This document shows positions 16,267 to 20,799 of a stretch of 64,000 nt of DNA, piece after piece. The stretch's first letter is position 1. The number at the start of each line of letters is the position of its first letter. The notes under the pieces are model-generated. The model was not told the DNA's origin. It worked only from the letters and a program-made list of their open reading frames with translations, and did no database searches. Source of the DNA: Escherichia coli (GTDB taxonomy: Bacteria > Pseudomonadota > Gammaproteobacteria > Enterobacterales > Enterobacteriaceae); assembly GCF_041886205.1 (NCBI RefSeq), contig NZ_CP169029.1. One strand, 5' to 3'. Both the position numbers and the translations under genes were made by a program.

Positions 16267-16812
16267 GTGGACGATTTGACCGCACAAGCCCTGAAAGATT
16301 TTACTGCACGCTACTGCGATGCGTGGCATGAAGAGCATAAAAGCTGGCCGTTAAGTGAGGAACTGTACGGTGTTCCTTCACCGTGCATTATTTCAACTAC
16401 CGAAGATGCCGTATACTGGCAACCCCAGCCGTTTACCGGGGAACAAAATGTAAACGCGGTTGAACGCGCTTTTGATATTGTGATACAACCCACAATTCAT
16501 ACCTTTTATACGACTCAGTTTGCCGGGGATATGCACGCGCAGTTTGGCGATATCAAACTGACATTGCTGCAAACCTGGAGTGAAGACGACTTCCGTCGGG
16601 TGCAGGAAAATCTGATTGGTCATCTGGTGACTCAGAAAAGGCTAAAACTGCCGCCCACGCTATTTATCGCGACGCTGGAAGAAGAGTTAGAGGTCATCTC
16701 GGTGTGTAATCTCTCCGGTGAAGTGTGCAAAGAGACGCTGGGAACACGTAAACGGACGCATTTAGCCTCAAATCTTGCGGAATTCCTTAATCAACTTAAG
16801 CCTCTTCTGTAA
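16267..16812 (+). CDS. syd: SecY-interacting protein Syd
   Basis: 181-aa ORF in conserved position upstream of csrB. Confidence 0.9.
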
Positions 16813-16831
16813 TCCAAATACCCCATCTGGT

Positions 16832-16849
16832 TGTGAGAGATCTCTTACA
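16832..16849. promoter_or_regulatory. UvrY (BarA/UvrY) binding palindrome upstream of csrB
   Basis: 18-bp inverted repeat TGTGAGAGATCTCTTACA about 175 bp upstream of the CsrB 5' end. Confidence 0.7.
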
Positions 16850-17022
16850 GACTCTGTAGGAGATCGCCAGGAAATAAGCGAATACTTAAAAAGATAAGAA
16901 TCGTTATTTTCATTTAAAATCAAAATGTTGATTGTTAATTCTTAACTTTCATATGAAATTTTCCTTAAGGCATTGTCTGTAAGCGCCTTGTAAGACTTCG
17001 CGAAAAAGACGATTCTATCTTC

Positions 17023-17388
17023 GTCGACAGGGAGTCAGACAACGAAGTGAACATCAGGATGATGACACTTCTGCAGGACACACCAGGATGGTGTTTCAGG
17101 GAAAGGCTTCTGGATGAAGCGAAGAGGATGACGCAGGACGCGTTAAAGGACACCTCCAGGATGGAGAATGAGAACCGGTCAGGATGATTCGGTGGGTCAG
17201 GAAGGCCAGGGACACTTCAGGATGAAGTATCACATCGGGGTGGTGTGAGCAGGAAGCAATAGTTCAGGATGAACGATTGGCCGCAAGGCCAGAGGAAAAG
17301 TTGTCAAGGATGAGCAGGGAGCAACAAAAGTAGCTGGAATGCTGCGAAACGAACCGGGAGCACTGTGAATACAGTGCTCCCTTTTTTT
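17023..17388 (+). ncRNA. csrB: CsrB small RNA (CsrA-sequestering)
   Basis: About 365 nt with many repeated CAGGAUG / AGGA motifs (CsrA binding sites), ending in a GC hairpin (17355-17380) plus T7 run. Confidence 0.93.
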
Positions 17389-17433
17389 ATTCCTGCTATC
17401 CTTCGCGGCAGTTTTTCTTATTGAGGTTGCTTT

Positions 17434-17763
17434 ATGACCACTCATGACCGCGTTCGTCTCCAGTTGCAGACGCTTGAAGCGTTACTGCGTGAACATCAGC
17501 ACTGGCGAAACGATGAACCCCAGCCGCATCAATTTAATAGTACCCAACCGTTCTTTATGGACACCATGGAACCACTGGAGTGGTTGCAGTGGGTGCTGAT
17601 CCCGCGAATGCACAATTTGTTAAATAACAACCAGCCGTTACCGGGTGCTTTTGCCGTTGCACCCTATTATGAAATGGCGCTGGCGACGGACCATCCGCAA
17701 CGCGCGCTTATTCTGGCTGAGCTGGAAAAACTGGATGCTCTTTTTGCGGATGATGCGAGCTAA
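17434..17763 (+). CDS. yqcC: DUF446-family protein YqcC
   Basis: 109-aa ORF, conserved position before truC. Confidence 0.88.
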   Translation: MTTHDRVRLQLQTLEALLREHQHWRNDEPQPHQFNSTQPFFMDTMEPLEWLQWVLIPRMHNLLNNNQPLPGAFAVAPYYEMALATDHPQRALILAELEKLDALFADDAS

Positions 17764-18545
17764 TGCTGGAAATACTCTATCAGGATGAATGGCTGGTTGC
17801 GGTAAATAAACCCTCCGGCTGGCTGGTTCACCGTAGCTGGCTGGATCGCGACGAGAAAGTAGTGGTCATGCAAACCGTGCGTGACCAGATAGGCCAGCAT
17901 GTTTTTACTGCTCATCGTCTGGACCGACCAACTTCTGGTGTGTTGTTGATGGGATTATCCAGCGAGGCCGGACGGCTGCTGGCACAACAGTTTGAACAGC
18001 ACCAAATCCAGAAACGTTACCATGCGATTGTGCGCGGCTGGTTGATGGAAGAAGCGGTGCTGGATTATCCACTGGTGGAAGAACTGGACAAAATCGCTGA
18101 TAAATTTGCCCGCGAAGATAAAGGCCCGCAGCCAGCAGTGACGCATTATCGCGGTCTGGCGACCGTAGAAATGCCGGTAGCGACCGGACGTTACCCGACC
18201 ACGCGCTACGGCCTGGTGGAACTGGAGCCGAAAACCGGACGCAAACATCAGCTTCGCCGACATCTTGCCCATCTGCGTCATCCGATTATTGGCGATAGCA
18301 AACATGGCGATTTACGCCAGAATCGCAGCGGTGCTGAGCATTTTGGCCTTCAGCGGTTAATGCTACATGCCAGTCAGTTGTCATTGACGCATCCTTTTAC
18401 TGGCGAGCCGCTGACTATTCATGCGGGTCTGGACGATATCTGGATGCAGGCGTTATCACAATTTGGCTGGCGCGGTCTGCTTCCTGAAAATGAAAGGGTT
18501 GAGTTCAGTACGCCATCGGGTCAGGATGGAGAGATAAGTTCCTAA
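17763..18545 (+). CDS. truC: tRNA pseudouridine(65) synthase
   Basis: 260 aa, RluA-family motif [12 protein letters not shown]. Confidence 0.92.
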
Positions 18546-18562
18546 TCCAGGGAGAAAACGGT

Positions 18563-19012
18563 ATGGCGGAAATTGGTATTTTTGTCGGCACCATGTACGG
18601 AAATTCGCTGTTAGTGGCGGAAGAAGCAGAAGCAATTCTGACCGCACAGGGCCACAAAGCAACGGTATTTGAAGATCCTGAATTAAGCGACTGGCTGCCC
18701 TATCAGGATAAGTATGTTCTGGTGGTTACGTCCACGACCGGGCAGGGCGACCTTCCTGATAGCATTGTGCCGCTCTTTCAGGGAATCAAAGATAGTCTGG
18801 GCTTCCAGCCGAATCTGCGTTATGGCGTGATTGCGCTCGGCGACAGCAGTTATGTAAATTTCTGCAATGGCGGCAAACAGTTCGATGCCTTGTTGCAGGA
18901 ACAGAGCGCTCAGCGGGTTGGCGAAATGCTGTTGATTGACGCCAGTGAGAACCCGGAACCGGAAACGGAATCAAATCCGTGGGTCGAACAGTGGGGCACG
19001 CTGTTGTCCTGA
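18563..19012 (+). CDS. yqcA: Flavodoxin-like protein
   Basis: 149 aa, [15 protein letters not shown]... flavodoxin fold. Confidence 0.9.
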
Positions 19013-19064
19013 TATGTTCAGCGAGCGGTAAATGCCGTTTTAGCGGTGCTGAATCGAATCTTTT

Positions 19065-19121
19065 CAGGCAAATGCCAGTAAAAACTGCTTCATAGCGCGG
19101 ATTTTTACTGGCGTTTGCCTG
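19065..19121. repeat. 20-bp inverted repeat (19/20 match) with 17-nt spacer between yqcA and gudP
   Basis: CAGGCAAATGCCAGTAAAAA ...17 nt... TTTTTACTGGCGTTTGCCTG. Confidence 0.6.
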
Positions 19122-19446
19122 GAGTCAAGCGATCCATTTCATACTCTTCTTTATTTCTTCGTTTTTACCCTTCCTTTCTTGTTCTTGTTTTCATTTCCGT
19201 GAAGTGGATTCCACCGTCCAGGGCTAATGCCAAAATCGGGCCTCATTGAACGCATTAATGTTGTGTTGTTGCACGGTGAGCCGCTATGGCGCGCTTTTTA
19301 TACTGCTATTGCCAGATATAAACACGCGCCGTATTCGGCGAACGACCTATAAAAACGGCAAAAAACACCCTACGTCACCTCTGATTTCCTGGCGATGTCG
19401 CAGTCCAGAGTGAGCGTGGCTAACGCGAATTTTCAGGAGTGCAACA

Positions 19447-20799
19447 ATGAGTTCTTTAAGTCAGGCTGCGAGCAGTGTGGAAAAACGCACGAATGCTCGT
19501 TACTGGATAGTGGTGATGTTGTTTATCGTCACATCCTTCAACTACGGCGACCGCGCTACGCTTTCTATTGCCGGTTCGGAAATGGCCAAAGATATCGGCC
19601 TTGATCCCGTGGGAATGGGCTATGTGTTCTCTGCCTTCTCATGGGCTTATGTTATCGGGCAGATCCCTGGTGGTTGGTTGCTGGATCGTTTTGGTTCAAA
19701 ACGCGTCTATTTCTGGTCGATCTTTATCTGGTCGATGTTTACCTTGCTGCAAGGCTTCGTCGATATCTTTAGTGGATTCGGCATTATCGTTGCCCTGTTT
19801 ACGCTGCGCTTCCTGGTCGGGCTTGCTGAAGCGCCATCTTTCCCCGGCAACAGTCGCATTGTTGCGGCCTGGTTTCCGGCGCAGGAAAGGGGAACGGCGG
19901 TGTCGATTTTTAACTCCGCTCAATACTTCGCAACGGTGATCTTCGCGCCGATTATGGGCTGGCTGACGCATGAAGTGGGCTGGTCACACGTCTTCTTCTT
20001 TATGGGCGGTCTGGGCATTGTCATCAGCTTTATCTGGTTGAAAGTCATCCACGAGCCAAATCAACATCCGGGGGTAAATCAGAAAGAGCTGGAGTATATC
20101 GCCGCGGGTGGCGCGCTGATCAATATGGATCAGCAAAACACCAAAGTTAAAGTGCCATTCAGCGTGAAGTGGGGACAGATCAAACAACTGCTCGGGTCAC
20201 GGATGATGATCGGCGTTTATATTGGTCAGTACTGTATCAACGCCCTGACTTACTTTTTCATTACCTGGTTCCCGGTTTATCTGGTGCAGGCGCGTGGGAT
20301 GTCGATTCTGAAAGCGGGCTTTGTGGCTTCCGTTCCGGCGGTTTGCGGTTTTATCGGCGGTGTCCTGGGTGGGATTATTTCCGACTGGCTGATGCGCCGC
20401 ACGGGATCGCTGAACATTGCGCGTAAAACACCGATCGTAATGGGCATGTTGCTGTCGATGGTGATGGTGTTCTGCAACTACGTCAACGTTGAGTGGATGA
20501 TCATCGGCTTTATGGCGCTGGCCTTCTTCGGTAAGGGCATCGGGGCGCTGGGTTGGGCAGTAATGGCAGATACCGCGCCAAAAGAGATCAGCGGTCTTTC
20601 CGGTGGCCTGTTCAACATGTTCGGTAACATTTCTGGCATCGTCACGCCAATCGCAATTGGTTATATCGTTGGCACGACTGGCTCCTTTAATGGGGCGCTG
20701 ATTTATGTTGGTGTTCATGCCTTAATCGCGGTACTGAGCTACCTGGTGCTGGTGGGCGATATCAAGCGTATCGAGCTGAAACCTGTCGCGGGGCAATAA
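19447..20799 (+). CDS. gudP: Glucarate/galactarate MFS transporter
   Basis: 450-aa MFS permease upstream of gudX/gudD. Confidence 0.92.

Follow-up and report, generated by a model that had tools for sequence, protein, structure and literature searches.

The window (the whole stretch of Escherichia coli DNA analysed here, 64,000 nucleotides) carries on its + strand csrB (17032-17391, a full-length Rfam match of 383 bits), yqcC (17434-17763), truC (17763-18545) and the flavodoxin gene yqcA (18563-19012). These assignments follow the list of open reading frames and, for yqcA, the RefSeq annotation of the identical K-12 locus. yqcA is the last gene of the co-oriented yqcC-truC-yqcA run. Downstream on the same strand lie gudP (19447-20799, with its ATG at 19447) and gudX (from 20801). 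The terminator of csrB also receives a weak score on the opposite strand (17356-17422).

The 3' untranslated region of yqcA contains a long hairpin at 19065-19121. RefSeq has no annotation at this position. An Rfam 15 scan of 16500-19700 returns csrB only; at the hairpin itself only a plant microRNA model is hit, by chance (E = 8; 18.6 bits, threshold 96).

The inverted repeat behind yqcA

The 5' arm CAGGCAAATGCCAGTAAAAA (19065-19084, + strand as are all parts of the hairpin) consists of the palindromic core GGCAAATGCC and a run of five A. The loop CTGCTTCATAGCGCGGA (17 nt, 19085-19101) retains a residual 4-bp inner stem and a bulged A19101, and the 3' arm TTTTTACTGGCGTTTGCCTG (19102-19121) starts with T5 at 19102-19106. 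Counted from the sequence, 19/20 positions of the arms match across the 17-nt separation, as the preliminary description had stated. Its distances hold as well: 52 nt lie between the end of the yqcA stop (19012) and the hairpin, and a further 325 nt between the hairpin and the gudP ATG. The single arm mismatch, T19073/G19113, can pair as G-U in RNA of the + strand; RNA of the - strand has a mismatched A.C there. The 20-nt arm occurs in two places in 64 kb, one per strand, with 0 and 1 mismatch, and shuffles lead one to expect 0.01 such matches in the window. Among short-range inverted repeats the hairpin ranks first in the entire 64-kb window.

Either strand folds stably, in agreement with the earlier expectation. 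The minimum free energy of the + strand RNA is -36.8 kcal/mol (z = -9.0; 0/200 shuffles as good), that of the - strand RNA -30.2 kcal/mol (z = -7.9). In total 27 pairs are predicted, i.e., 20 continuous base pairs, the 4 of the inner stem CUGC/GCGG (19085-19088 with 19097-19100) and 3 weak outer ones (19062-19064 with 19122-19124). In every one of the Escherichia sequences the + strand RNA is more stable than its - strand counterpart by 3-11 kcal/mol, and the arm substitutions among them are mostly transitions which leave G-U pairs on the + strand. Behind the stem the + strand continues with GAGTCAAGCG; a terminator scan finds nothing there, and the absence of a following U-tract had been correctly noted. 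What the first reading had missed is that T5 at 19102-19106 is homologous to the U-tract of a terminator-like hairpin elsewhere.

Several other assignments of the site were tried and dropped. A terminator of the minus strand is rejected on account of the asymmetric T-runs, the lack of a gene upstream on that strand and the weaker - strand fold. The -10 element of a possible minus-strand promoter (TTGACT-16-AAAAAT) is not kept in other genera. Small open reading frames across the hairpin are broken by indels of 1-2 nt between genera, and one frame contains a stop. The conserved CTGAATCGAGTTAGC ahead of the hairpin gave rise to the idea of a 3'-UTR-derived sRNA, which is not supported in E. coli: RIL-seq-based tables have no node for the yqcA 3' UTR and list yqcA only as a coding-sequence target, and Hfq-CLASH tables list nothing. 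A literature search did not find yqcA mentioned together with gudP or RNase III.

Within E. coli the hairpin is almost universal. It is found in 5425/5426 complete genomes; the 57-mer has exactly one place in each genome with a match, and it is identical in 4853 of the 5425. For longer flanked queries the median is 1 place per genome, and no genome has more than 2. A membership in a repeat family (REP/BIME, MITE) was rejected, the element being single-copy in the window and in the 5425 genomes. The sampled E. coli variants carry their changes in the loop (19096/19097) or in the flanks, while the arms are unchanged; both of the two sampled polymorphisms inside the hairpin are located in the loop. 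One genome of the E. coli clade (L002) has a hairpin with 2 mismatches and 4 G-U pairs. Two rearrangements in the vicinity were encountered. In strain CE0007a a 20-nt unit GTAAATGCCGTTTTAGCGGT (window 19028-19047) is present in four tandem copies, resulting in an intergenic region of 494 nt (L085, 101-594). In strain 2014C-4135 (L084) an IS66 is inserted directly after GTCAAG of the motif at 19124-19143.

Homologous elements in the Enterobacteriaceae

For comparison 80 yqcA loci were assembled, one genome per species. The search was keyed on the yqcA protein, and the sample is therefore unbiased as to the hairpin. In most of the 80 loci gudP follows yqcA, and the intergenic regions measure 278-515 nt, bar one with an insertion (1962 nt). 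A homologous element is present in at least 10 genera of the Enterobacteriaceae, at a fixed distance from conserved motifs upstream of gudP. Carriers are Escherichia, Citrobacter (the koseri, amalonaticus and sedlakii groups), Salmonella, Superficieibacter, Silvania, Kosakonia, Phytobacter, Raoultella and further genera. The preliminary description had counted a lack of conservation beyond close relatives against itself; the element is kept well outside Escherichia. In all carrier genera except Salmonella GGCAnnTGCC is positioned 55-57 nt before GTCAAGCGA; in Salmonella a 10-nt inner deletion shortens this distance. From GTCAAGCGA to TTCCGTGAA it is 70-72 nt, and TTCCGTGAA is about 245 nt before the gudP ATG. 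GGC..(4 nt)..GCC of the 5' arm is preserved in nearly all carrier genera.

Enterobacter, Lelliottia and the C. freundii group are without the element and have REP-type hairpins in its place. These REP-like palindromes, GCCGGGTAAGGCG..CGCCACCCGGC, fill the position of the hairpin in short yqcA-gudP intergenic regions (L010, L011, L016, L017, L025-L043). The element is absent wherever gudP does not adjoin yqcA. Loci in which gudP does not follow yqcA (L012, i.e., E. albertii, L013, L015, L018, L020, L063, L065, L069, L070) also lack all conserved gudP-upstream motifs; E. albertii has an unrelated hairpin, ATGCCCTCTGATAATCAGAGGGCAT, behind yqcA.

The centre of the element differs from one group to another. 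It is a stem of 5-7 bp, always self-complementary, in Citrobacter, Salmonella, Superficieibacter, Raoultella and Enterobacter sp. 10-1. The stem sequences are unrelated from genus to genus (CCTTTC/GAAAGG, CCCTT/AAGGG, ACCACT/AGTGGT, CCGC/GCGG), and in these genera an A-run precedes and T5-7 follows, on the + strand only. Such a core resembles, in Citrobacter, Salmonella, Superficieibacter and Raoultella, the layout of an intrinsic terminator for transcripts arriving from yqcA. In Kosakonia and Phytobacter the inner stem is present, but an A-run replaces the U-run. Silvania and two Raoultella species retain little predicted structure, their hairpin being weak or missing.

Covariation was examined by imposing the E. 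coli structure on an alignment of 26 sequences, with the pairing partners slid by 1-3 columns as control. In register 64% of the cells pair, against 31-48% with slid partners. The covariation score is 0.169 compared with 0.065-0.132 for slid partners and is reached by 5/500 shuffles, in a test which partly favours the structure by construction, as the structure is taken from one row of the alignment. One stem pair is AU in 7 sequences, CG in 7, UA in 2 and UG in 2. On the raw MAFFT alignment RNAalifold recovers GGC/GCC as its only consensus helix: gaps of 1 nt put the inner stems out of line, and the outer stem is missing from several genera. It was replaced by anchored register counts and counts of structure pairs.

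A different picture emerges for Escherichia. The inner stem has a free energy of -0.2 to -4.8 kcal/mol, as against -4.5 to -11.9 kcal/mol elsewhere. In E. coli CUGC/GCGG amounts to -2.8 kcal/mol and directly precedes the U-run. The alignment indicates that the E. coli loop corresponds to the G+C stem (5-7 bp) found in other genera, in a decayed state, and that T5 at 19102-19106 is a vestigial U-tract which is now within the 3' arm. Further, an Escherichia-specific GTTTGCCTG replaces the ancestral ATTTTCAC(N)G in the 3' arm and lengthens the stem. The ancestral 3' flank GGC(A/G)TTTTCA(C/T)NGG became GGCGTTTGCCTGG. This involved three substitutions on the 3' side, all of which make Watson-Crick pairs with the conserved 5' flank TCAGGCAAA, for a stem of about 24 bp. 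The chance that all three create pairs is about 0.04. Of 22 outer-stem positions 20-21 are paired in Escherichia and 17-19 in Citrobacter; elsewhere pairing is near chance.

Most genera other than Escherichia possess a second hairpin, CCCTCC(C)-loop-GGGAGGG, directly after the yqcA stop (z about -3). It is located within the first 40 nt (e.g., L008, L019, L022-L024, L046, L053, L054, L057, L079), mostly without a clear T-run. In Escherichia it is deleted, and the proximal 3' UTR of E. coli is unstructured (z = -1.4). Consequently, the hairpin at 19065-19121 is the only strong structure left.

The downstream tract, Rho and the gudP upstream region

Positions 19122-19200 (+) form an unstructured, pyrimidine-rich and G-poor tract, by composition and fold a candidate rut region. 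The tract begins with the conserved GTCAAGCGA-N5-TTTCAYA (19124-19143), has a GC skew of -0.45 to -0.60 and a minimum free energy of -2.6 kcal/mol over 79 nt. In the 56-nt spacer after GTCAAGCGA E. coli has a C/G ratio of 5.0 and 86% pyrimidine. Throughout Escherichia the spacer has C/G 3.8-5.3, the highest ratios among all genera, and 82-86% pyrimidine; in other genera C/G is 1.1-4.4.

Adams et al. (2021, PMC7815308) report an 'orphan' Rho termination region at MG1655 2,922,118 on the - strand (Supplementary file 2), with a Rho score of 3.98 and p = 9e-8. Coordinates were transferred via the csrB 3' end (MG1655 2,924,161 equals window 17386; K-12 and the window align without indels). The published region thus maps to about 19429 (19421-19437, +), 18 nt before the gudP ATG and about 300 nt downstream of the hairpin, in a coarse mapping by 800-nt windows with low counts (about 114 reads per 800 nt) and a resolution of hundreds of nucleotides. 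Reads up- and downstream were 114/23 in untreated cells and 112/90 with bicyclomycin (Adams et al., 2021). The rise of the downstream reads from 23 to 90, compared with about 112 upstream, argues against efficient intrinsic termination, at low coverage. Rho appears to stop read-through on the yqcA strand, and the hairpin on its own is probably no efficient terminator. The Rho signal could stem from a transcript which starts inside the intergenic region, or coverage may run past the hairpin. The curated Term-seq tables for three growth conditions contain no 3' end at or near the hairpin, in a region of low expression (Adams et al., 2021), and the TERMITe supplement has no entry for the site. 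According to Dar and Sorek (2018, PMC6061677) a stable U-less stem-loop followed by a C>G region is the typical Rho-dependent 3' end in E. coli; these authors also proposed that terminators switch mechanism in evolution. Just ahead of the mapped Rho position a gudP-leader helix is possible (19376-19384 with 19404-19412). It reads CTCTGA/TCAGAG in Escherichia, Citrobacter and Salmonella and TTCTGA/TCAGAA in other genera, which amounts to one compensatory change.

The sequence between the hairpin and gudP is conserved in its own right. GTCAAGCGA-N5-TTTCA(C/T)A (19124-19143), right after the hairpin, is almost invariant across at least 12 genera. Most genera have AAGCGA-N6-TCACA there, an 8/10 match to a CRP site, which in E. 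coli is weaker (TCATA). A Footprint-seq preprint has, among its sites, CRP sites at garP/garD and cdaR. TTTCATTTCCGTGAA (within 19189-19203) is invariant in 17/17 aligned sequences, and the spacer ahead of the 19189-19203 motif is variable in sequence at a constant length of 56-57 nt. GGC(T/A)WWWGCCA-N-AAA (19220-19233) is conserved, too. The conserved motifs and the spacer of constant length suggest a phased DNA architecture upstream of gudP. The likely gudP -10 element is 19299-19304. Nearly the same 15-mer, (A/G)GCATTTGCACAATG, is carried by the upstream regions of garP (L083, 418-460) and cdaR (L092, 6207-6361, - strand), and a third copy, GAGCATATGCACA, faces garD. The box GCATWTGCAC, derived here from garP, the garD side and cdaR and not itself a published operator, is a candidate CdaR operator. 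GCWWWWGC has a background of 0.3-0.5 per kb; its gar copies are at 173, 195 and 237 of L083, and the copies at 19223 and gar 195 are both 75 nt before TTATACT. The shared architecture of the gud and gar promoters was found by eye; BLAST and k-mer comparisons of the two intergenic regions return only chance-level 8-mers.

Interpretation and comparison with known elements

Three options had initially been offered for the repeat: a factor-binding site for gudPXD control, an RNA stability element and an unusual terminator. Homology, covariation and the G-U pattern of the + strand favour the RNA options, i.e., a stability element or a relic terminator. The initial interpretation is partly supported. 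The hairpin is downstream of a gene and on its strand, 52 nt past the yqcA stop. An intrinsic terminator, taken as a stable G+C-rich stem-loop with a U-rich tract (5 or more U in 8 nt) directly behind it, exists in several orthologues, whereas in E. coli the full stem is followed by GAGUCAAG and the sole U-run (19102-19106) is preceded by a stem of 4 bp only (-2.8 kcal/mol). Terminator ancestry is visible in the stem and T-run of the orthologues. Three features of a protective 3' stem-loop of the Rho type, namely a stable U-less stem-loop, an unstructured downstream region with C over G and bicyclomycin-sensitive read-through, are found at the locus. With moderate confidence we therefore regard the hairpin as a 3'-UTR element of yqcC-truC-yqcA, a former intrinsic terminator that has come to act beside Rho-dependent termination. 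This assignment draws on the fold, the homology and the covariation, on the make-up of the downstream tract and on the Rho-sensitive read-through in the published data; it presumes that yqcA transcripts reach the hairpin.

In detail, the ancestor would have been a terminator-type stem-loop, with an A-run, a short G+C stem and a U-run, parting yqcA from the gudPXD control region. In the lineage of Escherichia the inner G+C stem would have decayed, the U-run would have been buried in the 3' arm, and the 3' flank would have mutated to pair with the conserved 5' flank in a stem of about 24 bp. As a result of these three changes the hairpin would no longer be a competent intrinsic terminator. RNA polymerase would pass it and enter the unstructured pyrimidine tract, Rho would load there, and transcription would be halted before or at the gudP start. 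The hairpin, as a stable 3' structure, most likely would block 3'-to-5' exonucleases and thereby stabilise the yqcA message; possibly it also serves as a pause or insulation element.

Some observations sit uneasily with this assignment and lead to the alternatives. GGC..GCC of the 5' arm is kept even where the 3' side no longer pairs, so RNA pairing alone would appear insufficient as an explanation, and the near-constant spacings to the downstream motifs suggest an architecture at the DNA level; both fit an operator. The arms would then be protein-binding palindromes (CWGGCAWWTGCCWG) far upstream in the control region of gudPXD, as sites for CdaR or some other regulator; a palindromic site that is present twice necessarily yields an inverted repeat. 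The 10 nt deleted in Salmonella correspond to one helical turn. The promoters of gudP, garP and cdaR share TTGCAC-N24-TATACT (TATGCT in cdaR; gudP: 19269-19274, 19299-19304), and in 127 kb of E. coli DNA GCATWTGCAC is confined to the garP, garD-side and cdaR promoters (3 unique sites, about 0.5 expected). GGCATTTGCC, the reverse complement of the 5' arm, is 2 positions off this box, the ancestral 3' flank GGCATTTTCAC of other genera 1 position, and GGCGTTTGCC in the 3' arm resembles it. GCWWWWGC has three copies each in the gud (19068, 19223, 19305) and gar intergenic regions, about 20x background. Yet these motifs were defined after seeing the data, and the likeness of the arms to the box is weak: with 2 and 3 mismatches they lack its CAC, and they lie some 190-246 bp ahead of the predicted start of gudP, whereas the box is 24 nt before the -10 hexamer. 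The shared 9-mer GGCATTT[GT]C, with 11 occurrences in 127 kb, is frequent, and one copy in a region of 434 nt has p ~0.04. The four W positions of both arms are complementary, which is more than merely being W; inner stems are free to covary, the T-run is asymmetric between the strands, most substitutions are of the G-U type, and the gar intergenic region has no comparable hairpin. An operator in place of an RNA element is thus unlikely in our view; an operator role could coexist with the RNA reading.

Further points against a protective hairpin behind a lost terminator are the A-run in Kosakonia and Phytobacter, the weak or missing hairpin in Silvania and some Raoultella, and the loss of the element from every locus where gudP does not adjoin yqcA. 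Alternatively, the element would be a neutral relic, a functionless terminator in decay which owes its length to chance substitutions and its uniformity to low diversity within the species. The element was lost or replaced several times in the family, the Term-seq tables map no 3' end to it (Adams et al., 2021), and the hairpin of L002 already shows its mismatches and G-U pairs. We consider a relic doubtful: the three 3'-side changes of Escherichia all create pairs (chance about 0.04), the sampled E. coli variants differ in loop and flanks but not in the arms, G-U changes maintain pairing across Escherichia species, and the strengthening of the stem coincides with the loss of the proximal hairpin. 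The perfect stem of 20+ bp could equally be a target of RNase III which destabilises the message. Cleavage of the ~24 bp stem would set the decay of yqcA mRNA or part the yqcA message from read-through RNA that runs into the gudP leader. RNase III double cuts in intramolecular stems are known (Altuvia et al., 2018). The predicted duplex, 20 bp continuous plus 4-7 pairs and free of an internal loop, reaches the ~20 bp or more of largely uninterrupted double-stranded RNA expected of a substrate, and its lengthening is specific to Escherichia. On the other hand, nothing separates cleavage by RNase III from a protective hairpin, and most long 3' hairpins of E. coli are not known to be RNase III targets. 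We give RNase III a slim chance only.

If the hairpin indeed is a former intrinsic terminator retained beside Rho, the locus would be a clean natural case of drift from intrinsic to Rho-dependent termination with a protective hairpin retained. Such a transition was proposed by Dar and Sorek but not traced by them in a single orthologous site. This reading would also account for the insulation between yqcC-truC-yqcA, a constitutive operon, and gudPXD, whose induction is tight. A more far-reaching version, which we hold to be rather improbable, has one orthologous element switching from intrinsic terminator to reinforced hairpin plus Rho in step with the loss of the neighbouring hairpin and a sharpened C>G tract, its arms being derived from a CdaR-type operator-like motif with a dual role in DNA and RNA. 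The general view of terminators is unchanged by the finding; this is ordinary biology. To specialists the by-products, i.e., the candidate CdaR box (garP, garD, cdaR) and the conserved gudP upstream region with its fixed spacings, are maybe more useful. The gudP control region is a more promising lead than the hairpin.

Among known systems the protective stem-loops of Rho-terminated transcripts share with the hairpin a stable, U-less stem-loop about 50 nt past the stop and an unstructured C>G region immediately after it. It differs from them in a stem of about twice the typical length, in internal A5/U5 runs which betray an intrinsic-terminator ancestry, and in that no steady-state 3' end is reported at the site. 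Intrinsic terminators with an A-tract are matched by the orthologues, which have the A-run, a G+C stem of 5-7 bp, a loop of 4-7 nt and T5-7. With the CdaR-promoter box the arms share GGCATTTGC or GCAAATGC; unlike the box they are in a far-upstream position and deviate by 2-3 mismatches including CAC. Like REP/BIME elements the hairpin is intergenic, stable and transcribed, and REP elements stand in its place in Enterobacter and the C. freundii group; unlike them it is present in one copy per E. coli genome and is without the REP consensus.
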